DNA from: a virus | Taxonomy: Duplodnaviria; Caudoviricetes | Strand: one strand, 5' to 3' | DNA length: 64,000 nt | IMG/VR virus record: IMGVR_UViG_3300045015_000053 | Shown here: piece by piece, positions 18,125 to 45,591 of the stretch | Layout of the letters: every line of letters begins with the position of its first letter | How positions within the stretch are numbered: position 1 is the stretch's first letter | Made by a program: the position numbers and the translations under genes | The notes under the pieces: model-generated | Seen by the model: the letters and a program-made list of their open reading frames with translations, nothing else | What the model was told of the DNA's origin: nothing | The model's database searches: none

Positions 18125-19051
18125 TAGTGTTCTTGTTCTGGACGACGTTATCTATGTTGTCTTTCAGATGGAGGAGGAATTCTTTCTGCTTGCCGTTTTT
18201 GATCGCCAAGTTCAAAGAAGCAAGAAGCTCCAGGGCGTCTTTGCTGTATTGTTCTTTGTTTTTCATCGCGTGTTTCAAGACTTCGCCCAGATTGTCTTCG
18301 GTAGCCAACTCCCCGGTCAGCCTCGCGTAGTCCCTCTTCAAAGCGGCCAGACGGACACCGATCTCTTCAAAATCGAAATAATAGTTCTCCGTATCCGAAG
18401 CCTTCTTCCCTCCGAGGACGCCGCCGGCCGCGAAGCTCATCATCCTGTCCTGGGTGGAGTGTGACAGTTCGTGAGCCAGAGTGTGGATTTTGCTAACGTC
18501 GGACACAACGCAGTATTTCTGCGATTTGCCGTTTACTGTCACAACGCCACAGAATCCGTTGACCTGTTTCTTCCCCGCGTTAGAGTTCCATCCGGCCTTT
18601 TGGAAAATTCGTTGGGATCAATTCCGACAACAACTGGCACCGGCTTGTCCAGTAGTTTCGCGTCCATCGCCGTCCCGTCGAGCCGAAAGGTTTGTTTGGA
18701 CGCGCGGTCTACCGAAGCCTTGTATAGCTTGTCGTTACCATAAAGGGGTTGGATTATTTGTGATGGGGTAATCATCTTGATGTTGTTTCTGCCGATGTTG
18801 ACATGCGGGTACTCTTTCTTCAAAGCGACAAGTATGTAATCGACTTCTTGCTCCCCGCTTTTCACCATTTGTTGTTTCGGTTCGGCAGATTGTTGTGCTT
18901 GAGGTGCGTGAGGTGACAGAGACATACCCAAACCCGTCGCTCCCAGTGTCGCAAGTCTGGCAGCGTTTTTGAAAAAACCCTCTTCAAGCGTGAAGTACTC
19001 TAAAGTAATTTCCGCGTTGACGAATTTGCTGAACTCTTTGGCACCTATCAC
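18105..19051 (-). CDS. putative HExxH metallopeptidase with a capsid-targeting-like N-terminus, split by a -1 frameshift near 18600
   Basis: ORF 19051-18539 (MIGAKEFSKFVNAE..., hydrophobic stretch) continues in the -1 frame as FQKAGWNS...HTLAHELSH. Confidence 0.65.
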
Positions 19052-22000
19052 TCTTCTCCTCCCGGCGGTCGATACCCAGGCTGGCCCTTCAGCTTCACGA
19101 TGTGCAGTTGGTCCATAGCCCGCGTGTAGGCGACGTAGCGTGCGTTCTCCTCTTGGAGTTTGTCGGCTTCCTTCGTGGCTCGCGGGTGCGGGAACTGGTC
19201 GTCACGCAGAATGTAGACGCGAGAGAACTCCAAGCCCTTCGACTTGTGAGCCGTCGTCAACACCACCGGGTGTTCCTTCTTCACCTTCTCGTTGAATGCT
19301 CTCAGGTCGGCCTCGTTGTCCTGAACGTCGAAACCGCCCAGGCGAGCCTTGAGCCACTTCTTGAAGTCTTTGACGGTCGGCATCGGTTTGGCCGCGACCG
19401 CCCGCATCATCGCGTCGTGCGCCCGGTCGTCCATCTCCTCCACGTCACGCGACATCCCGGTGAACGCCGCCAGTGCGGAGTAAAGAGCTTCCGAGGTGGC
19501 GTTCATTTCCTGTAGGTACGCCTTCTTGGAGTTCATCGAACTGAACCGCTCGTTTTCTTTCTTCTGGTACTCTTCGAGCTTCACGCCGAGGTTCGGCCGA
19601 CCGCCCGCTCGCGGGTGCGGGATCGCCGGGGAATCGTCCCTCATCTTGGCCCCCTTCAAGACCTTGCCGATGTGACGCATCAATTCGTTTGACACGTCGC
19701 GACCCACGATGATGAACGGCACGCCGTCGCCCAACATCTTCAACGCGGCCTGAACCAGCGGTTCGTTGGTACGGGCGATGAACGCCGTTTCCGGCATTTT
19801 CGGCCCGCCCTTTTTCGAGTCCTCGTGTTCCTTCTTGAGCGTGGTGAAGACCTCGCCATATTCCTTGTCTTGGTTTGTGACTTCGCCACCACCGCCGTTC
19901 GGGTACTTGCTCTCACTGTGTTTGAGGCCGGTAACGTGGCCCATGTTGTTGACGTGGTCGAGAATGCCCTTCCGCGAGCGGTAGTTCGTCGTCAGCGTGT
20001 GTTCCGTGTCCTTGTCGCCCGAAAGCTCTTTCAGGGTCCGGCCGAGGCTGTGGAAGGCGTCACCGTCAGCGCCACGGAAGCGGTAAATGGCTTGGTTCGG
20101 GTCGCCTACCGCCACGATCTTCGCGCCGGCACCGTGCAACTTCTCCAGCATCAGCTTTTGGCACGGGTTGAAGTCCTGCACCTCGTCGGCGAGGACCACG
20201 TCGTAGTGCGGCCAGTGCATGTCGTGGGCGTTGATCGCGGCGAACCAGATGTCGTCCGAGAAGTCGCGCATGCTGCCCAGGTCGTATTCCATGCCCTTGA
20301 AACTGAGGGTCTGCGTCGTTCCCTTCGGCAGACTAGCCTTCAGCAGCCACTCGGCTGCCTCAGCGATCTCGTCCTTAAAGTTCTTGCCCATGAAGTCGAA
20401 GCCGTAGACCTTCTTCAGAGCGGCCAGAACTTCCGTGACCATGCTGCTCGAACGGTACTTCCTGATGCGTTCTTTGATTTCGGCCAGCCCGGTATCGAGG
20501 TCGTAACCCTTGAACAGCTTTTCGAGTTCGGCCTTGACGTGGTTGCCGTCTTTTCGCGGATCGACGCCGTAAGCTTTCGCCAAGTCAGCGACCTTCTGCG
20601 AGACTTCCTTGAACATATAGCGGATGGAGTGTGCGCAGCTTTTCGCGGCCGTCGTTGAGTATTCCCCAATCGGCATCTTCTCGATGATGGCGTCGGCGGT
20701 CGCGTCTTCAACGATGCCTAGTTTCTTCAGCACCTCGTTGAACTGCGATCCGTCCACGATTTCGCCCATTTTGCTTCGCGGCATCGGCGACTTTTCTTCC
20801 TCGTCCTCGTCTTCCGAAGCCTTGTTCCGCTTCTTGTTGAGTACCTCGATCATCCGCTCGGTCTGGTCGATCCGGCTGACATTCTCGTTCGACTTCAGCA
20901 AGTTGCCGAGGAAGCCGTTCGTGGTGCGAACGTCAACCCAGGAGGTTGGGAACTTCTCTTGAGCCTCGACCTTGTTCTTGGTGTTGAACACCAGATACAG
21001 CCAGCGTTCGCCCGGCTTGCCGTATTTCCACGCCAAGTGCTTCAACATCGTCGTGTTGTGTGTTACGACGCAGTTTTCTGTGACGTACAAGTTGTCTTTC
21101 GCGTCAACCGCAATGCATTGACACGGTTTTTTGCCAATCGAAGTGATTGACTTGATGACCCTAGACGGCTGATACTTTGTTTTGGGAGTGTACTTCTCCT
21201 GTTTCCTTTTCAAAGAAAAGGGATTGCCAGAGATTTTGATGTACACTCGGTAGCAAGGCTTGCCTGATTTTTTGACCCCTTTGTATGTGTAACTCGTTTT
21301 CTTGTGGGTGATTTTCCCGGTTCCGCCCAGTGACTCAACGAGGAATTTAATGTCTTTGGCAAGACGATACGAAGCGGTAGGGTAGAAAATCGTGTGGGTT
21401 CCGACTTCTCCATCTGTGTCGAGAAGTCCGCTCAACACTTTCGCTCTTGTCTCAACTGTATTGAATTTGTAAATGTCTGGAACAAATTTATTGTCGGACC
21501 CCATTCTCCACAAGCCTAGTTTTTTGATCTCTGCCACAATTTCGTTCTTCCGGCCTTTGATGCCGCTTGAAATACGATAATCGCAGCCATATCCTGTCGG
21601 CCGGCTTTTCAAAGCAGGAGGCAGTAACCGATCAACGCTTTCGACTATTTCTTTGTCTTCCGATGAGTAGGACACGCAGCCGGTTCTGAAACTCCCGTCA
21701 CCCAGAAGCACGCCCATTAAATACGGATCAATGATTGTCAGTTGCGAAGCAAACTCGACGTTTTCGACCATTGGAACATAGTGTTTTGGTTGTTTTCTGT
21801 AGAGCAAATCGCCAGCAATTTCTTTGGTAGTTAGGACTTTGCCATAAGAGAAAAGAGGTATTCCCTTTTGTTGACAGTAGACTCTTTCTCGTTTGCATTC
21901 TGTCAGCCAAAGGTGATCTTCAGAGCATTCCACAATGGACCCGTCCATAAATCCGACTTCGACCACTTCTTGCATCCCTTGAGGGAAGACTCCAATAACT

Positions 22001-23019
22001 TTGTGTGGTTTGCCGTCACGTCCAATGACCAGATTATTGACTTTAATGTCGCCCATCCTGATCCAGCCTTTTGGGGTCAAGATTTTGGAATCAAGTGGTT
22101 GAGCTTTGCCCGACCCGGCCAGAGCGTTGATCATCATGTGATCCTGGCTCTTGCTGGACATCATCTGCTCGAACCGCGCGTCGATCCGTCGCTGTTCGTC
22201 CGACAATTTCTCGTGTTCGAGGACGTGCTTTTTCTTGTCCGCGTCGTTCGGCTTGCCCTTCGACAACTTGCCCTCGACCAAATCGTGCAACTCGGCCAGA
22301 CTCGGCGCGGAGTAGATGCTCTTGCCGTCATCCTGTTTGACCGACTGCACCACGTTCGGGAGGTCGGACTTGGTAGTCGCGGCCATACGCTGGCCGCCGA
22401 ACGTCCAGATCTCCCAAGCGCCGTTCTCGGCCTCGACAACGCCCACGTCTTCGTCGGCCTTGATCGTTTCGATGTCCTGCTTGGTTTTGGCGTAGATCCA
22501 CTTCTGGCCCTTAGCAGGTGCGGCCGATGGCTTTGCTTGAGTTTGAGCTTGTTGTGGTTGTTGCGGCTGTGTGGCTCTGTGGGTGGCGGCGACTTGTCGG
22601 AGAGCTTCGATGGAGTCGGCCATTACCGGGGTGTTCCCGTCGCGGACGGACTTGACGTAGTTCGCCAGTTCTTTTTCAGACACGAAGGCGCGGGCGTTCG
22701 TGTCGAGGTGGACGACTTCCCACGTCCCTTCACGGGGTTTTGAAACGCCCACGTCATCGCCGGCCTTCAATTGACCGACCGGCTTGATGATTCGACTGTA
22801 GATCCAGCGACCCGTGGGCTGTTTGTTGGTTTCCAAGAGGCACCTTGAGAGGATTTCGTCCTGAATTTCCAGATAAAATGCGTCACCCAGGTCGCTGCGG
22901 TGGTAGTTTTCAGCGATCCATTTTAGGTCGGAAACTGACGTTTCGCTGCCGAAATAGAAGTTCTTGTAGAACCGCGAGCGGCATTCTGAAACGAGCCAGT
23001 TTTTGAAGTCGAGTTTCAT
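19048..23019 (-). CDS. SF1 UvrD/Rep-like helicase with intein and a capsid-targeting-like N-terminus
   Basis: ALAGSGK|TT, ADEVQD, AVGDPNQAIYRFRGAD, NYRS, TAHKSKGLEF, YVAYTRA; N-terminus MKLDFKNWLVSE (alternative start 23043). Confidence 0.92.
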   Translation of the reverse strand: MKLDFKNWLVSECRSRFYKNFYFGSETSVSDLKWIAENYHRSDLGDAFYLEIQDEILSRCLLETNKQPTGRWIYSRIIKPVGQLKAGDDVGVSKPREGTWEVVHLDTNARAFVSEKELANYVKSVRDGNTPVMADSIEALRQVAATHRATQPQQPQQAQTQAKPSAAPAKGQKWIYAKTKQDIETIKADEDVGVVEAENGAWEIWTFGGQRMAATTKSDLPNVVQSVKQDDGKSIYSAPSLAELHDLVEGKLSKGKPNDADKKKHVLEHEKLSDEQRRIDARFEQMMSSKSQDHMMINALAGSGKAQPLDSKILTPKGWIRMGDIKVNNLVIGRDGKPHKVIGVFPQGMQEVVEVGFMDGSIVECSEDHLWLTECKRERVYCQQKGIPLFSYGKVLTTKEIAGDLLYRKQPKHYVPMVENVEFASQLTIIDPYLMGVLLGDGSFRTGCVSYSSEDKEIVESVDRLLPPALKSRPTGYGCDYRISSGIKGRKNEIVAEIKKLGLWRMGSDNKFVPDIYKFNTVETRAKVLSGLLDTDGEVGTHTIFYPTASYRLAKDIKFLVESLGGTGKITHKKTSYTYKGVKKSGKPCYRVYIKISGNPFSLKRKQEKYTPKTKYQPSRVIKSITSIGKKPCQCIAVDAKDNLYVTENCVVTHNTTMLKHLAWKYGKPGERWLYLVFNTKNKVEAQEKFPTSWVDVRTTNGFLGNLLKSNENVSRIDQTERMIEVLNKKRNKASEDEDEEEKSPMPRSKMGEIVDGSQFNEVLKKLGIVEDATADAIIEKMPIGEYSTTAAKSCAHSIRYMFKEVSQKVADLAKAYGVDPRKDGNHVKAELEKLFKGYDLDTGLAEIKERIRKYRSSSMVTEVLAALKKVYGFDFMGKNFKDEIAEAAEWLLKASLPKGTTQTLSFKGMEYDLGSMRDFSDDIWFAAINAHDMHWPHYDVVLADEVQDFNPCQKLMLEKLHGAGAKIVAVGDPNQAIYRFRGADGDAFHSLGRTLKELSGDKDTEHTLTTNYRSRKGILDHVNNMGHVTGLKHSESKYPNGGGGEVTNQDKEYGEVFTTLKKEHEDSKKGGPKMPETAFIARTNEPLVQAALKMLGDGVPFIIVGRDVSNELMRHIGKVLKGAKMRDDSPAIPHPRAGGRPNLGVKLEEYQKKENERFSSMNSKKAYLQEMNATSEALYSALAAFTGMSRDVEEMDDRAHDAMMRAVAAKPMPTVKDFKKWLKARLGGFDVQDNEADLRAFNEKVKKEHPVVLTTAHKSKGLEFSRVYILRDDQFPHPRATKEADKLQEENARYVAYTRAMDQLHIVKLKGQPGYRPPGGEE
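21055..22104 (-). mobile_element. class 3 intein (350 aa) with a LAGLIDADG endonuclease, inserted in Walker A
   Basis: Starts AQPLDSKILTP, ends VVTHN before Thr; HLW, CQCIAV and THN give the W-C-T triplet; LLGDG and LLDTDG motifs; lower GC. Confidence 0.92.
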
Positions 23020-23049
23020 GTTGTCCTTGTTCTGCTTTCCCATCACGGT

Positions 23050-23056
23050 TATGTAG
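23050..23056 (-). promoter_or_regulatory. late-promoter-like box CTACATA
   Basis: 6 nt upstream of the ATG at 23043. Confidence 0.5.
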
Positions 23057-23150
23057 TTACGCGGAACCGAACTCAAACTGGCAGTTTTTCGATCTCGGCA
23101 TTGTCACAATCGAGCGTTTCGGTTACGCTTTCTCGAAACGGAGGTTTACG

Positions 23151-26392: not shown

Positions 26393-26463
26393 CCACCTTT
26401 GGGCCAGTGGCTGGCCAGCGATCTCTAAAATCGCGCACATCGGTTCGATTCCGATAAGGTGGG
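26393..26463 (+). tRNA. amber-suppressor tRNA, anticodon CUA
   Basis: Full cloverleaf: acceptor CCACCTT/AAGGTGG, D stem GGCC/GGCC with GG in the loop, anticodon stem GCGAT/ATCGC with loop CT-CTA-AA, 4-nt variable loop, T arm ATCGG-TTCGATT-CCGAT, G73; CCA not encoded. Confidence 0.9.
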
Positions 26464-26528
26464 CTGAATCTAAAACAAAATTTGCATTGGTCAGAACGAC
26501 AATCGGTTCGATCCCCACAAGGTGGGCT
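26464..26528 (+). pseudogene. degenerate tandem copy of the tRNA 3' half
   Basis: ATCGGTTCGATCCCCACAAGGTGGGCT vs ATCGGTTCGATTCCGATAAGGTGGGCT, plus a TCTAAAA remnant. Confidence 0.6.
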
Positions 26529-33118: not shown

Positions 33119-33718
33119 ATGGAAAGCGCCATTTATGGCAAAGGCATGGCCGGCAAGGGAGTTACGCCGTCCATCGCCCTTTGCAATCCGAAGTACGCTC
33201 ACAACGTGGGTACGATTGTCCGCGCCGCTTCTTGTTTCGGAGCGAAGCAAGTTTGGTTTTCCGGCAACCGGGTGTCGCTCGACCCGAAGAAGGGGGAGCG
33301 GTTGCCGCGAGAGGAGCGGATGAAGGGCTACAAGAACGTCGAACTGCGTCAGTACGACTACTTCTTCGACATGTTCGAGAAGGACGTGGTTCCGGTGGCG
33401 ATTGAGCTTCGCCCCGGCAGCGAGTTGTTGACGGACTTCGTCCACCCGGAGAAGGCGTTGTACGTCTTCGGGCCGGAAGACGGCAGCATCCCGCAAGTCA
33501 TGATGCGTCACTGCCATCGGTTCGTCGTGATCCCCACACACCACTGCGTCAACCTCGCGGCGGCGGTCTACATGATCCTGTACGACCGCATGTTGAAGCG
33601 GCACCAGACCGGCGAGGAACCGATCACCTCGATGGACGAAATCCTGAAAGAGAATCGGGGCTGGTCGTCGCCCGACAACAACGGCGAAACCCGTGACTTG
33701 CTGGAAACGATGAAGTAA
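33119..33718 (+). CDS. SpoU/TrmH-family SPOUT RNA 2'-O-methyltransferase
   Basis: NPKYAHNVGTIVRAASCFG, YVFGPEDG, IPTHHCVNLAAA. Confidence 0.9.
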   Translation: MESAIYGKGMAGKGVTPSIALCNPKYAHNVGTIVRAASCFGAKQVWFSGNRVSLDPKKGERLPREERMKGYKNVELRQYDYFFDMFEKDVVPVAIELRPGSELLTDFVHPEKALYVFGPEDGSIPQVMMRHCHRFVVIPTHHCVNLAAAVYMILYDRMLKRHQTGEEPITSMDEILKENRGWSSPDNNGETRDLLETMK

Positions 33719-33774
33719 AAGGCTCCCCGTGGCACAAACCACGGGGGGTTTTGCTAAAAATGGCCTATAGTGAC
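33717..33774 (+). terminator. terminator followed by a GCCTATAGTGAC promoter box
   Basis: CTCCCCGTGG/CCACGGGGGG stem plus TTTT; box at 33763-33774. Confidence 0.7.
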
Positions 33775-33802
33775 GGTGTTTCCACAAGAAGGGGATGTTG
33801 CC

Positions 33803-34315
33803 GTGAACTATGCTCGTAAGCTTCTCGCTTGGACGAACCGCTCCGAGAAGCCGTATGCGACTCACTCGGTCGTTTTGGTCGTAGAAGACAACAAGCGGAA
33901 AGGCACCTTCGGGCTGTGCATCAACCGCCCCGCGCCGATCCTGCCGTGTACCTGTGGTCAGTGTCCGGTTCCGCCCGTGCCTCTGTACCTCGGCGGGCCG
34001 AAGCATCTTGACAACCGATACTTTCTTCTCCATGATCAACCGCTGGCTGCGGACAAGCGTGACCGCGTCATCGAAAAGGTGTACGTCTCATGCCCATACG
34101 CTCTGAAGGAACTTCAGGGTGAAGGCAAGGACCGGGGCAAGATGATCACCGGGTACTTCCACTGGCTTCCCGGCGAACTCGAAGAAGAGGTCGCGATGGG
34201 CTGGTGGGAGGTCAATGACAAGCCCACGCACGAACAGGTTCTTGTTTCGGAACCGCGCCACGTTTGGGGGAAACTGGTCCCCCTGACCGAACGGATCTAT
34301 CCGAGTGCGAACTGA
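33803..34315 (+). CDS. YqgE/AlgH (DUF179) family protein
   Basis: SVVLVV...GTFGLCINRP, YLGGP, GYFHWLPGELEEE...W. Confidence 0.85.
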   Translation: MNYARKLLAWTNRSEKPYATHSVVLVVEDNKRKGTFGLCINRPAPILPCTCGQCPVPPVPLYLGGPKHLDNRYFLLHDQPLAADKRDRVIEKVYVSCPYALKELQGEGKDRGKMITGYFHWLPGELEEEVAMGWWEVNDKPTHEQVLVSEPRHVWGKLVPLTERIYPSAN

Positions 34316-35614: not shown

Positions 35615-35923
35615 ATGACGCTTCAAGAGATCTATGCGATCATCTGGAAAGAAGGCGTGAATTCGCCTTCTTTGCCGCGAGGGTGGCTTCTTCCGCAAAA
35701 CCTGAAACCGGCCCAGATCAACGAACATTTCCCGGTCGATGCTTTGGTCATGGTTATGGCCGATTCTTACGGGGAACGCGATTTCGTTTACCCGAATCTG
35801 AGAAAGAGATCGTGGTGGTTCGGTCGTGTCGAGGCAGCAACAAGTGACAGGAACGTTCGTGTCAGAAGTACGTTTTCGGGAGCAGTTCGTTCGGTTCCGT
35901 ACAATAAGATCAGGATTTACTAA
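35615..35923 (+). CDS. hypothetical protein
   Basis: GAGGAA RBS. Confidence 0.7.
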   Translation: MTLQEIYAIIWKEGVNSPSLPRGWLLPQNLKPAQINEHFPVDALVMVMADSYGERDFVYPNLRKRSWWFGRVEAATSDRNVRVRSTFSGAVRSVPYNKIRIY

Positions 35924-35924
35924 C

Positions 35925-36362
35925 ATGACCGTCGTCTGCCAGAACCGCAAAGCCCGCTTCGATTATGAGGTTGTCGAAACCGTCGAAGCGGGTATTGTGC
36001 TGAAAGGCACGGAAATCAAATCCGTGCGAAACCACCGCGTTTCTCTCGACGGAGCGTATGCCAGCGTGGACGCCGGAAACGTTACGCTAGTCGGCTGCAA
36101 CATCGAGCCGTATTCGCACGGCAATGTTCACAATCACGAAGCCAAGCGTGACCGACGCCTGTTGCTCAACCGGAGCGAGATCGACAAGATCGCGAGCAAA
36201 GCGGCGGTGAGGGGGTTCACGTTGATCCCGCTGTCGATGTACATCAAGGACGGTCGCGCCAAGATCGAACTGGCCGTCTGTCGCGGTCGGCAGACGCACG
36301 ACAAGCGGCACGCCATCAAGGACCGCGAAGTGAAGAAGGCGATGAAACGGGGAAAATTCTGA
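35925..36362 (+). CDS. smpB: SsrA-binding protein SmpB
   Basis: NRKARFDY, EAGIVLKGTEIKSVR, RRLLL, GFTLIPL, HDKR. Confidence 0.97.
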   Translation: MTVVCQNRKARFDYEVVETVEAGIVLKGTEIKSVRNHRVSLDGAYASVDAGNVTLVGCNIEPYSHGNVHNHEAKRDRRLLLNRSEIDKIASKAAVRGFTLIPLSMYIKDGRAKIELAVCRGRQTHDKRHAIKDREVKKAMKRGKF

Positions 36363-37645: not shown

Positions 37646-38026
37646 ATGAAGACTCAGATCACTGCCGAACACCTGTAGGTTTCTGAAGAGAACACTCCGT
37701 ACTGTTACCTCTTCTTGCGGGAAGATCTTCCCCGCGTCTACAGTGCGGTCCAAGCGTGCCATGCCGCCATCGGCGGCGGGCAGTTCTTGATCCCCCAAAA
37801 CATCCCACACCCGCACCTCGTTCTGCTCAGGGCTTCCTCCGAGCAGGAGCTTCGCAACATCGCGTCCCGTTTGGAACGCGACGGGGTACGTCATTACGTT
37901 TTCACCGAGCCAGACATCGGTAATCAAACTACTGCGTTGATTACCGAGCCGGTATATGGTGACAAGCGTCGAGCGTTCCGTCGTTATCGCTGTGTGAACG
38001 AACCGCCGAAATTAGATAGCGGATAA
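37646..38026 (+). CDS. peptidyl-tRNA hydrolase II (Pth2)-like protein with an in-frame TAG at codon 11
   Basis: MKTQITAEHL*VSEENTPYCYLFLREDL...AVQACHAA...LVLLRA..E.EL...F.EPDIGNQTTAL; TAG at 37676-37678. Confidence 0.75.
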
Positions 38027-41023: not shown

Positions 41024-41466
41024 AAGATCTTCTTCGCAATCTGCATGTCGTCACCACGCACCAAACGTGGAGCCTGTTCGTGAAACAGGTTTCTGCAATC
41101 CCAGAGGCCACGCCAGAAACCGCCTTCCGTCAGATTCTGAAAATGGCAATTCAGACCTTCCCCGCAGCACGGTATTCTGACAACATGAAGGCACTGCGCA
41201 AAAGATGGGAAGGGAAAGCGGCCAGCGTCAAGGCGTGGACTGCCAGCATCGGTCTGCCTAGCGAGGCCGAAACCTTCCAGATCATCCCGGCCGAAAATAG
41301 GCTTGTGTTTTCCGCCGAGAAGTGTGGTGTGCCGTTTTTGGAAGACATGATCCAGATCGCATATCCTGAGTGCATGTACAAGCCGTTTAACTGGATGCCG
41401 TTTAGCCGTCAAGTAGTTTTTGAAGGTCAAAACAAGTCCGGCATTAACATTGGAGACGTGAAGTGA
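41020..41466 (+). CDS. hypothetical protein
   Basis: ATGA coupling. Confidence 0.75.
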   Translation: MKDLLRNLHVVTTHQTWSLFVKQVSAIPEATPETAFRQILKMAIQTFPAARYSDNMKALRKRWEGKAASVKAWTASIGLPSEAETFQIIPAENRLVFSAEKCGVPFLEDMIQIAYPECMYKPFNWMPFSRQVVFEGQNKSGINIGDVK

Positions 41467-42740
41467 ACCCCAACATCCGCCCACTCCCCGACAAAATCGG
41501 CGTCGGCTTCCTGAGTCCTGAAAAGATCGGCGCGAGCGATTACCGCGAGGAGCGGGCCGCTCACGTCTGGCACTACTTCTTCACACCAGAACGTTGGACT
41601 TGGCCGCTGTGGGACTCGGCCGATCAAGAGAAACCCGGCCCGTCGTTCAAGATCGACGCCTTCTCGCCCAATCTCAACAAGAGCCTGCACTTCGGCCATT
41701 TGCGTCAACTCGCACTGGCCCATTGCATCGGCCGTCTACTGCCACGCACGCAATTCGTTTCGCTGTTGGGATGCACCGGCATCCTTCAGTCGGCACAAGA
41801 CGAACTGAAGGACTGGCTCGATTTCCTCAACATGCGTCCGAAACTGTACTACGACGCCCTGATGCCGCACGACCCGACCATCGTGGAGCGTCACGATGGA
41901 GAAGGCGACAAGGCCGGCGCGATGGTGTGGGACGGACCACTCGGCCCGGTCGTCGTCATGCGGAAGCCGGACGAATCGGGTCACCGCCGTCCGACTTATG
42001 CCTTCCACGATCTCGCTTTTGCGAAGATCGTGGGACCGGACTATTACATCACCGGCGCGGAACAAGTTGAACACTTCCGCAGTCTGGGGTTGGGCAACAA
42101 GCACCTGCCGATGGGCCTCGTCGTTGACGCCGAGGGCAAAAAGCTGAAGAGTCGTTCCGGTGACGCGATGACGGCCAAAGAGGGCTTCGAGGCGGTCGAA
42201 CTCGCCATGAAGCCGGTTCCAGATCCGAAGAAGATCGTCTGGAACATCGTGGCGTGGAACATGCTGTCGGTCGGCCGCAGCACGAACGTCAAGTTCGAGC
42301 CGGAAAAGTGGGTGAAGCCGGAAGCTCCGGGGATGTACTGCTCGTACACATGGGCGCGGCTGTACTCCGCTCTGGGCGGGCTGTACCGTGGCGACGGCAG
42401 TGACATGACCCAGAGCGATGCGGAACTGGCGGGGTATTCTCAGTACCGCCACTACTACATCGCGAAGGCTCGCCAGAGCATGGACCCGGCTCCGCTGGCG
42501 AACTACCTGTACGATCTGTGCCGCCGCGCTACGAAGGCGTACCACAGCGAGCGTATTCGTGACGGTCGTCGCGGGTTCCAGTTCGCGGTGAGCCACGCGA
42601 TGAACGGCATCTACGACTGCATGAACGCCCTCGGCCTGTTCCCAATCAAGATGCGGGAGGAAGACGATGTTCGAGACAACGGGGCCGCATTACTGCCCGA
42701 ACTGCGAGCCGATACTGAACAAGAAAGACCGTCGTGTTGA
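41463..42740 (+). CDS. argS: minimal arginyl-tRNA synthetase-like protein
   Basis: SPNLNKSLHFGHLR (HIGH), TYAFHDLA, YITGAEQVEHF, KKLKSRSG (KMSKS), YCSYTWARLYS and YLYDLCRRATKAYH (DALR domain), LGLFPIKM. Confidence 0.85.
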   Translation: MNPNIRPLPDKIGVGFLSPEKIGASDYREERAAHVWHYFFTPERWTWPLWDSADQEKPGPSFKIDAFSPNLNKSLHFGHLRQLALAHCIGRLLPRTQFVSLLGCTGILQSAQDELKDWLDFLNMRPKLYYDALMPHDPTIVERHDGEGDKAGAMVWDGPLGPVVVMRKPDESGHRRPTYAFHDLAFAKIVGPDYYITGAEQVEHFRSLGLGNKHLPMGLVVDAEGKKLKSRSGDAMTAKEGFEAVELAMKPVPDPKKIVWNIVAWNMLSVGRSTNVKFEPEKWVKPEAPGMYCSYTWARLYSALGGLYRGDGSDMTQSDAELAGYSQYRHYYIAKARQSMDPAPLANYLYDLCRRATKAYHSERIRDGRRGFQFAVSHAMNGIYDCMNALGLFPIKMREEDDVRDNGAALLPELRADTEQERPSC

Positions 42741-42936
42741 CGAGCCGCTGAAGCTGGTCGTCAAGAACTACTCAGGGTGCGCCGTGGACATCGCCGTGTG
42801 TCCCCGGTGCAATCACCGCTTCCAGATCTCGTACAAGGTCGATAAGGTTTTGGACGTGGAAGAAGAGTTTCGCAAGATCGAGAGGTCTTACGAAGAACAG
42901 TACGCAAACATTCGAGACAAAAAGAAGAAGAAATGA
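42667..42936 (+). CDS. zinc-ribbon protein
   Basis: CPNC and CPRC; GGGAGG RBS. Confidence 0.75.
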   Translation: MFETTGPHYCPNCEPILNKKDRRVDEPLKLVVKNYSGCAVDIAVCPRCNHRFQISYKVDKVLDVEEEFRKIERSYEEQYANIRDKKKKK

Positions 42937-43316
42937 CACTCGAAGAGTTCCTCGCCGCACCGTATCCCACCAACGCATTCATCGACCGCGAGGGGTGGGA
43001 CACGTTGTACGTCCGCAAGGCTCCCATTGGCGTCAAGATCAACGGCAAAGTCCACCGCGTGAACAAGGTCTTCACGTTCGCGAACATCGGCGTGGACGAG
43101 CCGGGGCAAGGACTGTTCACTAAGTTGGTTGAGGAGTTGGTGGCACAAGGGTGGGCGATCTACGTCGAGTGCGTCCACGACTTGAACCCGCGATTCCAAG
43201 ACGGGTTGCGGCGGCGCGGTTATCTGGAGTTGAGGGAAGAGGGCGGGCGGTCCTCGAACTTTCTGTTCAACTACGAGGGACACACCCACGAATGGGTGTA
43301 TCACGGCGGAATTTAG
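42933..43316 (+). CDS. GNAT-like N-acetyltransferase
   Basis: FANIGVDEPGQGLFTKLV, IYVECV..LNPRF...L.RRGY. Confidence 0.65.
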   Translation: MTLEEFLAAPYPTNAFIDREGWDTLYVRKAPIGVKINGKVHRVNKVFTFANIGVDEPGQGLFTKLVEELVAQGWAIYVECVHDLNPRFQDGLRRRGYLELREEGGRSSNFLFNYEGHTHEWVYHGGI

Positions 43317-44007: not shown

Positions 44008-45591
44008 CTAGCCCTTTTTCCTTACCGCGAACCAGTCCCAGTCGTATTTGTTGAGGTAGCTACAAACGTGGCTCCCCAGTTCTTTTGAGTAGCTCTCTTT
44101 GCAGTCTTCCCAACCGGCCAGCCTCAACATGCTCGCCCACCACTCCATTGATCTTATGCAGAGGTGGGTCGGATCTTCGTTTTCATTCGCACGCTTCTGT
44201 CTGTCAAATGAGTTGGCCGTATCTAGTACCGCAAAGAAAGTAGCTCCAGACCGACAGACGCGATTCAACTCTTTCAACACGAACGGAACCAGTTCCGGCC
44301 TCATGTGTTCGAGTACCTGTTGCGAGTGAACGCCTGCGAACTTTTGATCCTCGAACATGTGCATGTTAGCGCCGTCGCCAACGTAAAGTGGGATTTCGGG
44401 CCATTTCTCTCGGCCCAGTTTGACGGTGTATTCGTTCAGGTCGATTCCAGACGGTTTGCAGCCGTTTTCTTGAAGTCCCTTCGCAATCGCGCCGCACGCA
44501 CAACCGAACTCAAGTACCTCTTTGCCTCTCCACTTCATGCAGTCGGCGATCCATCGGCCGTACTCTCGCTGCCAATCTCCGTAGGCGGCATAATCACACC
44601 CCGCCTCTTTGTGCTGTTCGTAGTAGGCTCGGTCATACGCGGTGGACCTGAGCAGTTTGGACTGTTGCATCGGGTTGCCGCAGTACGGAGCCGTTTTCAG
44701 CTTCTCGACAACCGTTTCCAGCAGCGTTGATCTGAAGTCGGCGTAGCGGCGGTATTGGTACTTTCGCTCGAAGTATTCGATGCCGAACGGACGGTTCTTG
44801 GCCTTCATGAACTTGCCGGCGTCGGACGGGATCAGGTGCAGAACGTCGCTCAACTCGAAGAAGTGAATCGGGTGGTGCCTGACCCAAATGCCGATTGACG
44901 GCGTTTGAGTAGCGCCGGCGACGTGTAACGGCCCGCTGTCAACTCCGATGAACAGTTTCGACTTCGAGATCAACGCGGCGATTGTCGCCATGCAGCCGGT
45001 GCTGGTGCCGCCCCACATCGGGTGAAGTTTGTCCGGGTTGAAGATGGTGCGTTGATCGGGGAGCGGGCTTCTCCGGTCCCAGTCGAGGATTACCGGCGTG
45101 TAGTCGTTCCGAACGAGGTGTCTGCACACTTCGCCGACATCATCGTGGTTGATGTTCTTCTTGTCCTGGCTGCTCGTACCCTGATAGTGGATCGTGACGA
45201 TTCCCTTCGACGGCGGCAACGACTTCAGGTAATCGTCAACGAGACTGAGGTGTTGTCGTTCGGGGTCGATCTGATACCTGAACAGCGACTCGTCGGGAGC
45301 GATTTTGAACTCTTCCAGAAGAGATCTGGTGACTTTGCCGCTCGGCAGGTTTTCGTAGCACTGTTGCGGCTCGAACCATTTTGTCGATACGATCTGGTCG
45401 AACGTGAGTTTGGGTGGCCGCGAGCCGCGAACGAACGAGTTTTCGCAAAGTTGTCTGAGGCCGGTGTGTTTGCCAACGGGGATCTCCGTAAACACCTTCC
45501 AGTCGGGTCGGTATTTACGGAGGTGTTTGAGTACGATGGAGAACTGAGCGGTGTCGCCGAGGCCGTGGTTGTGGCTGATAAGTACGTTCAT
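44008..45591 (-). CDS. GT9 (heptosyltransferase-like) glycosyltransferase fused to a class I SAM methyltransferase
   Basis: HGLGD, FIGVDSGPLHVAGAT; VLEFGCACG, GIDLN, QVLEH. Confidence 0.88.
   Translation of the reverse strand: MNVLISHNHGLGDTAQFSIVLKHLRKYRPDWKVFTEIPVGKHTGLRQLCENSFVRGSRPPKLTFDQIVSTKWFEPQQCYENLPSGKVTRSLLEEFKIAPDESLFRYQIDPERQHLSLVDDYLKSLPPSKGIVTIHYQGTSSQDKKNINHDDVGEVCRHLVRNDYTPVILDWDRRSPLPDQRTIFNPDKLHPMWGGTSTGCMATIAALISKSKLFIGVDSGPLHVAGATQTPSIGIWVRHHPIHFFELSDVLHLIPSDAGKFMKAKNRPFGIEYFERKYQYRRYADFRSTLLETVVEKLKTAPYCGNPMQQSKLLRSTAYDRAYYEQHKEAGCDYAAYGDWQREYGRWIADCMKWRGKEVLEFGCACGAIAKGLQENGCKPSGIDLNEYTVKLGREKWPEIPLYVGDGANMHMFEDQKFAGVHSQQVLEHMRPELVPFVLKELNRVCRSGATFFAVLDTANSFDRQKRANENEDPTHLCIRSMEWWASMLRLAGWEDCKESYSKELGSHVCSYLNKYDWDWFAVRKKG

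Follow-up and report, generated by a model that had tools for sequence, protein, structure and literature searches.

A compact, divergent arginyl-tRNA synthetase homologue of huge phages

The virus record IMGVR_UViG_3300045015_000053 of IMG/VR (Duplodnaviria; Caudoviricetes) carries a gene for a small and divergent homologue of arginyl-tRNA synthetase (ArgRS). The gene lies at positions 41463..42740 on the plus strand of the 64,000-nt stretch of DNA analysed here, referred to below as the window (GC content ~57%), and encodes 425 amino acids (aa) between a GTG start and a TGA stop. Its product is probably a working, minimised class I ArgRS within the translation toolkit of huge phages and would make Arg-tRNA-Arg. 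Phage-encoded aminoacyl-tRNA synthetases (aaRS) are already known in general; what appears to be new is the compact architecture of this ArgRS family of ~385-450 aa, which is found almost only in huge phages.

The open reading frame (ORF) is a real gene. Its GTG start overlaps the stop codon of the upstream gene in the shared sequence GTGA, and the orthologue at the related locus L054, 86% identical, has ATG at the same start codon. The ratio of nonsynonymous to synonymous substitution rates (dN/dS) is 0.066 over aa 1-398 in comparison with L054, and 0.109 in comparison with a second relative, L001; the body of the protein is under purifying selection.

Homology, fold and active site

Curated models give low scores to the single protein. 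An earlier note on the window had named hidden Markov model (HMM) searches with tRNA-synt_1d and DALR_1 as a check on its assignment to ArgRS; both regions are indeed matched, with scores that stay below threshold. PF00750 (tRNA-synt_1d) scores 16 bits (E 0.005) at the HIGH region, and PF05746 (DALR_1) scores 18.9 bits against a cut-off of 22.3 (E 0.0016) over aa 318-367. TIGR00456 (argS) scores 42.2 bits (E 3.5e-11), and its equivalog cut-off of 261.65 bits is not reached. The PHROGs search gave no informative family for the synthetase.

By profiles and structure, homology to ArgRS is nonetheless well beyond chance. For a profile of 60 family members, whose identity to the window protein goes as low as 27%, the matches in the PDB are ArgRS only (E 6.6e-24 to 2.9e-11). 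A global hhalign comparison with six canonical ArgRS (E. coli ArgRS and five proteins of 535-576 aa whose matches cover most or all of the PF00750 model) has a probability of 100% and an E-value of 5e-54, and places aa 1-398 on residues 15-577 of the E. coli enzyme. The AlphaFold2 (AF2) model of the synthetase is confident, with a predicted local distance difference test score (pLDDT) of 92.4 and a predicted template-modelling score of 0.89. When this model was searched against the PDB with Foldseek, all 20 of the top 20 matches were ArgRS. With VIA-align the best superposition is to yeast ArgRS (1bs2; Z 28.0, 376 residues, 2.9 A); ranks 1-15 are all taken by ArgRS, the entries other than 1bs2 at Z 21.7-27.4, and are followed by CysRS (Z 21.6) and then by MshC (Z 19.3) and MetRS, both below 20. 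The sequence profiles together with the confident AlphaFold model thus place the protein in ArgRS, and we take it, on profiles and predicted fold, to be a small and divergent homologue. The claim of the earlier note, that a phage here encodes an ArgRS homologue far below the size of any canonical ArgRS, is borne out by profiles, fold and length alike.

The residues that hold arginine are kept. In the E. coli enzyme the guanidinium group is contacted by D118, Y313 and D317, and the main chain of the amino acid by A121, N123, H132 and Q341 (PMC3956977). In the hhalign alignment the first three fall on D65, Y179 and D183 of the window protein and the other four on S68, N70, H79 and Q201. Among the 60 family members D65, N70, H79 and Y179 are each found in 60/60 and Q201 in 59/60, and the column of D183 holds 49 D and 11 E.

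The catalytic signatures lie in a Rossmann-fold domain, delimited by hhalign to E. coli ArgS and by family conservation, that extends over aa 61-250 (41643..42212, plus strand). The HIGH signature LHFGH (aa 75-79; 41685..41699) follows K73 in the segment SPNLNK; family-wide, K73 and H79 are invariant (60/60) and H76 and G78 are each present in 59/60. The KMSKS-like loop KLKSR (aa 227-231; 42141..42155), which hhalign aligns to KPFKTR of E. coli, has K227 in 59/60 and both S230 and R231 in 60/60. A role for the lysine upstream of HIGH, compensating for KMSKS, was reportedly described by Sekine and colleagues in 2001. In total 14 columns are invariant across the 60 sequences, catalytic and arginine-pocket residues among them.

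The remainder of the canonical chain is the helical anticodon-binding domain of the DALR type, Add2 (aa 251-398; 42213..42656, plus strand), as defined by DALR_1, by hhalign to E. coli residues 383-577 and by the range of the VIA-align model, which reaches aa 398. DALR_1 is matched by 54 of the 60 family members, with a best E-value of 2e-12. The domain includes the Omega-loop region, where the switch sequence FEGNTAPY..Y..TR of E. coli corresponds to a retained PEAPGMY..Y..AR. The LHFGH, KLKSR and DALR motifs that the earlier note had recognised are therefore all present.

The natural reference is the canonical bacterial ArgRS, represented by E. coli ArgS (577 aa; PDB 4oby and 5b63; TIGR00456; PF03485 + PF00750 + PF05746). 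The two proteins share the Rossmann core, HIGH and the lysine before it, K-x-K-S-R at the KMSKS site, the D, N, H, Y, D and Q residues of the arginine pocket, the Omega-loop region, Add2 and the column at which the chain ends. In contrast to E. coli ArgS, from which it differs at all but ~18% of positions, the phage protein is ~180 residues shorter (~400 versus ~580), lacks Ins1 and an equivalent of R324, has only half of Ins2 and ~60 residues of Add1, and adds a 27-aa tail in its own lineage.

Other comparisons are more distant or less complete. The entry A0A8D9CCB2 of BFVD/UniProt, named ‘Arginine--tRNA ligase [uncultured marine phage]’ (385 aa), shares this compact fold (TM-score by target 0.75) at 26% identity. 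ArgRS of giant viruses (Mimivirus, Klosneuvirus and Yasminevirus, ranks 2-4 in BFVD) are likewise virus-encoded and share the fold, but they belong to viruses of eukaryotes, are 443-658 aa long and align with gaps over 452-579 columns; at 14-17% identity, they are not of the same clade as the phage family. CysRS and MshC, class Ia proteins with a DALR-type helical domain, are similarly small and compact and superimpose at Z 19-21.6 over ~300 residues, whereas the pocket residues of the phage protein are of the ArgRS type and its profiles match ArgRS only. In the literature we found no paper on a compact ArgRS architecture, and the names given to family members are automatic annotations. A search on nematode mitochondrial ArgRS returned nothing relevant, and in a text search of a paper on metazoan mitochondrial tRNA-Arg identity no truncated enzyme was mentioned.

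Reduced domains and the C-terminal tail

The reductions were mapped with the domain limits published for E. coli ArgRS: Add1 1-112, Ins1 164-221, Ins2 258-311 and Add2 383-577 (PMC3956977). Between G103 and D149 the window protein has ~46 residues versus ~120 in the E. coli counterpart. Ins1, the large helical insertion after HIGH that the earlier note had judged absent, has no counterpart in the hhalign alignment, in agreement with that judgement. Ins2 is roughly halved, its hairpin part alone being aligned, and a further ~38 residues are gone downstream of the KMSKS loop.

Add1 has shrunk from ~112 to ~60 residues and is devoid of helices in the AF2 models, which show three strands (residues 15-18, 28-32 and 35-39). 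This part (aa 1-60; 41463..41642, plus strand) is a conserved beta mini-domain, with P7, P9, G13, G15, F16, Y27, G33, [YF]35, N37, Y38, T41, W47 and P48 as its conserved positions and with a dN/dS of 0.074, which indicates purifying selection. The earlier note had the N-terminal domain as absent; most of it is lost, but this conserved sheet of ~60 residues persists.

PF03485 (Add1) is matched by 0/60 family members at E<=1. The N-terminal 66 residues, folded alone and compared with 48,161 PDB chains, have no clear fold match (best Z 2.7), and the Add1 fragment of Klebsiella ArgRS (3gdz) scores Z 2.4 against the isolated mini-domain, which is at noise level. The family motif G-R-[YF]-x-N-Y, in the region of aa 33-41, is set by hhalign on GPGFINIFL of E. 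coli, in a register of low confidence; the E. coli strand with GPGFIN carries the ‘Tyr/Phe-Asn/Gln’ motif of the pocket for nucleotide A20 (PMC3956977). On this low-confidence register the sheet is probably a vestige of Add1, and the A20-pocket motif may survive in it in most family members. The window protein and the two relatives closest to it read A-H-V-W-H-Y at this motif, with V35 and H37 replacing [YF]35 and N37.

At the other end of the chain, 50 of the 60 family members terminate in the alignment column of aa 398, the counterpart of the C-terminal Met577 of E. coli. A tail of 27-28 aa is found in members P0001 and P0002 only, and eight other members have 2-10 extra residues; in the subclade of the window protein the chain end is ...MR followed by 2-10 extra residues. 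The tail of the window protein (aa 399-425 and the stop codon; 42657..42740, plus strand) is acidic and lineage-specific, as the family alignment shows, and is predicted to be disordered (pLDDT 45-50 in the AF2 model). Its dN/dS is 0.99, versus 0.066 for the body.

The frame of the tail overlaps, by 74 nt, a downstream ORF on the plus strand (42667..42936) for an 89-aa zinc-ribbon protein with four cysteines (CPNC...CPRC), which is conserved at L054 with the same ATG. The GGAGG ribosome-binding site of that gene sits within synthetase codons 398-401, and over the 24 codons of the overlap the window and L054 differ by 5 replacements in the zinc-ribbon frame versus 10 in the tail frame. The zinc-ribbon protein itself has a lysine-rich C-terminus and no Pfam match, and is not found on L001. 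The L001 relative, 71% identical, has another gene downstream and its stop lies five codons past MR. The earlier note had suggested that what follows ...LGLFPIKM, overlapping the next gene by 74 nt, reflects a lost stop. The point at which 50/60 members end, the predicted disorder and a dN/dS of about 1 support this suggestion. We read the tail as a by-product of the frame running into the neighbouring zinc-ribbon gene, and a rearrangement that would have introduced this gene is the likeliest cause.

Family distribution, genomic context and tRNA genes

A word-index search returned 170 relatives, mostly of 385-450 aa, and an exhaustive HMMER search yielded 240 clusters (50% identity), of which 70 have E-values below 1e-30. 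In IMG/VR the family is represented by 44 loci, whose viral contigs measure 675 kb at most. A search of 185,579 species genomes with a single peptide pattern found just eight loci, all on contigs of metagenome-assembled genomes and 0 from isolates, and the AlphaFold cluster library contains no cellular cluster that is equally compact. Distant members occur in two GenBank records of uncultured phages, LR745206 and LR756504, each of ~635 kb. Relatives lie on contigs of 300-693 kb whose gene content is of phage type, with gp32, HNH endonucleases, SmpB, ADP-ribosylglycohydrolase and numerous small ORFs that Pfam does not match. One member of unusual layout, P0139 (1077 aa), has the compact ArgRS part at aa 685-1074, behind ~684 N-terminal residues with no Pfam match.

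In five sister genomes (completeness 97% or more in three of them) no ArgRS-like match other than the compact gene appears. Its products in these genomes score 26-66 bits against TIGR00456 and 0/5 reach the cut-off, while ArgRS of control genomes pass in 14/14 cases.

The surroundings of the gene in the window are in part of a translation and ribosome-rescue type. A block 3-8 kb upstream consists of genes for a SpoU-type methyltransferase (33119-33718), an AlgH-like DUF179 protein (33770-34315) and SmpB (35826-36362; E 3.6e-54), together with an ORF (37715-38026) whose weak Pth2-like match does not reach the Pfam cut-off. The SmpB/DUF179 neighbourhood recurs on L001, and the family member on L003 is adjoined by genes for MetRS, PTH2 and an RF-1-like protein. 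In four gene contexts the synthetase gene has no transferase or biosynthetic partner next to it. Synteny with the window extends to L001 and L054, which have an HNH gene upstream and a glycosyltransferase-methyltransferase (GT9-methyltransferase) fusion downstream. In the window this fusion, of a family 9 glycosyltransferase (heptosyltransferase-like) and a class I S-adenosylmethionine-dependent methyltransferase, is encoded at 44008-45591 on the minus strand, and it adjoins the synthetase at all three loci. Farther away, a 1342-aa ORF (19048-23076, minus strand) has primase/helicase-loader-like and DNA helicase matches in PHROGs and probably encodes a replicative primase-helicase.

Four of the five sister genomes, all of which are without a full-length ArgRS, have sets of 47-64 tRNAs each, with 219 distinct tRNAs found by ARAGORN; Rfam tRNA matches number 55-62 each in three sister genomes. 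The four genomes contain 14 tRNA-Arg, with anticodons ACG, GCG, TCG, CCG, TCT and CCT. Arginine identity is carried by A20, C35, U/G36 and A/G73, and C35 stands out even in cases where A20 plays no part (PMC9976931). The sister tRNA-Arg have C35 in 14/14, A or G at 73 in 14/14, and A20 (an A right after G18G19) in 12/14.

The cores of these tRNAs were examined as a candidate sign of co-evolution with the synthetase. In the pooled set a core with a nucleotide other than U at position 8 is found in 8/14 tRNA-Arg versus 33/205 other tRNAs (Fisher p = 0.001). The 533-kb phage G002 (L052:11811-12916 and L053:4567-7580; the IMG/VR record behind L005) has six tRNA-Arg with near-identical D-arms, in which position 8 is G or A instead of U and position 14 is mostly G instead of A. 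We rejected an atypical tRNA-Arg core as a general sign of this kind: the signal comes mostly from the six G002 genes, and in G005, another phage with a compact ArgRS, 4/4 are canonical. The unusual core is specific to one genome.

The window has one tRNA gene, for a tRNA(CUA) (amber suppressor) at 26393-26464. Its D-loop, AGTGGCT, has C after GG, which confirms the observation of the earlier note that A20 is missing; it further has U35, A36, G73 and a short variable loop. A nearest-neighbour comparison among the 219 phage tRNAs was uninformative as to its amino-acid identity, the best match being 76% to a tRNA-Tyr.

Competing explanations and meaning of the finding

The explanation that we favour, and hold to be probable, is a functional ArgRS reduced to a minimum. 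In its support stand the homology and fold, the conserved pocket and motifs, purifying selection, a distribution all but limited to phages, co-occurrence with phage tRNA-Arg and the lack of a second, full-length ArgRS in sister phages; activity, substrate and benefit are inferred. L-arginine would be held in the canonical pocket while HIGH and KLKSR serve the ATP chemistry. The tRNA-Arg would be held by the retained Add2, reading C35, and possibly also by the vestigial Add1 sheet, and Arg-tRNA-Arg would be made from tRNA-Arg of the phage, of the host or of both. For the phage the benefit would be that its protein synthesis is sustained when the charging capacity or the tRNA-Arg of the host is limiting or under attack.

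Several observations weigh against this explanation. The single sequence is below threshold in every curated ArgRS model. R324, which braces D118 in E. coli, is lost and replaced by V190. The subclade of the window protein has changed the putative A20-pocket residues (V35, H37) and extended the chain end. With Ins1, half of Ins2 and most of Add1 lost, activity could be impaired or altered, because in canonical ArgRS contacts to the tRNA, including the D-loop, are required for the activation of arginine (PMC9976931). Finally, tRNA(CUA) is the sole tRNA of the 64 kb, although the window is only part of the phage genome.

Some of the same observations could point to an ArgRS paralogue that retains its binding of arginine, ATP and a tRNA-like RNA and has been repurposed for a role outside translation, for instance to supply Arg-tRNA to an aminoacyl-transferase, to sequester tRNA-Arg or shield it from a host anticodon nuclease, or to arginylate another acceptor. 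Extreme divergence (42 bits against a TIGR00456 cut-off of 262) and the loss of Ins1 and most of Add1 would suit such a protein, aaRS paralogues with new roles are frequent (review, PMC9437257), and one of the fold neighbours is MshC (Z 19.3), a ligase that resembles CysRS. However, the anticodon-binding domain, the Omega-loop region and the canonical chain end are kept family-wide, no transferase or biosynthetic neighbour appears in the four contexts, and the sister phages carry sets of tRNA-Arg alongside ordinary aaRS such as MetRS; we regard repurposing as improbable. Nothing supports the proposal of the earlier note that the protein might be a repurposed aminoacyl-adenylate enzyme, since all the elements that face the tRNA are retained. 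Decay, in which a drifting ArgRS has become an inactive relic after losing its domains, would account for the sub-threshold scores, for the domain losses themselves and for an unconstrained C-terminal tail that resembles a lost stop. It is very improbable in the face of the dN/dS of 0.066 over aa 1-398, which argues strongly against it, of 14 invariant columns in 60 sequences with identities down to 27%, and of a compact architecture that is constant across the family and is modelled at a pLDDT of 92.

The earlier note had also raised relaxed or altered specificity, possibly paired with the amber tRNA, so that arginine would be inserted at amber codons. In its favour, the only tRNA of the window is this tRNA(CUA), without A20; the window subclade has lost the [YF]-x-N motif that hhalign sets on the A20 pocket; and the discriminator G73 fits arginine identity (PMC9976931). 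Against it, C35 is the near-universal arginine determinant (PMC9976931), read by the conserved Add2, whereas tRNA(CUA) has U35. The two genes are 15 kb apart, and TAG stops persist in several likely genes of the window, e.g. 44008-45591(-) and 42933-43316(+). Genes for tRNA(CUA) are also found in sister phages whose enzymes have Y-x-N, beside 47-64 other tRNAs, so the co-occurrence in the window carries no information. The sister phages besides have ordinary tRNA-Arg sets. No result supports the pairing, and we consider it highly unlikely. We also entertain, as a speculation with an outside chance, that no smaller ArgRS architecture exists in nature, that this one works without Ins1 and with a mere remnant of Add1, and that the window subclade, with V35/H37 and its extended C-terminus, may read tRNA-Arg by rules other than A20 plus C35, which would make a naturally orthogonal phage ArgRS/tRNA pair.

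Huge phages of >200 kb can encode as many as 67 tRNAs and 15 aaRS, and were proposed to charge their own tRNAs (Al-Shayeb et al. 2020, PMC7162821); a compact ArgRS fits that proposal. Since aaRS were confirmed with TIGRFAM models in that study (PMC7162821) and members of the compact family fail TIGR00456, the family was probably missed there. More generally, the family shows that curated HMM cut-offs undercount divergent synthetases in inventories of huge-phage translation genes.

ArgRS is among the few synthetases that need tRNA for amino-acid activation, and Add1, the reader of A20 in the D-loop, is regarded as a hallmark of the enzyme. A family of ~400 residues that is maintained by selection without Ins1 and most of Add1 would therefore define a minimal parts list for ArgRS. 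For engineering, it would provide a small scaffold and perhaps an orthogonal pair. For the phages, the charging of arginine would join the functions that they take over from their hosts.

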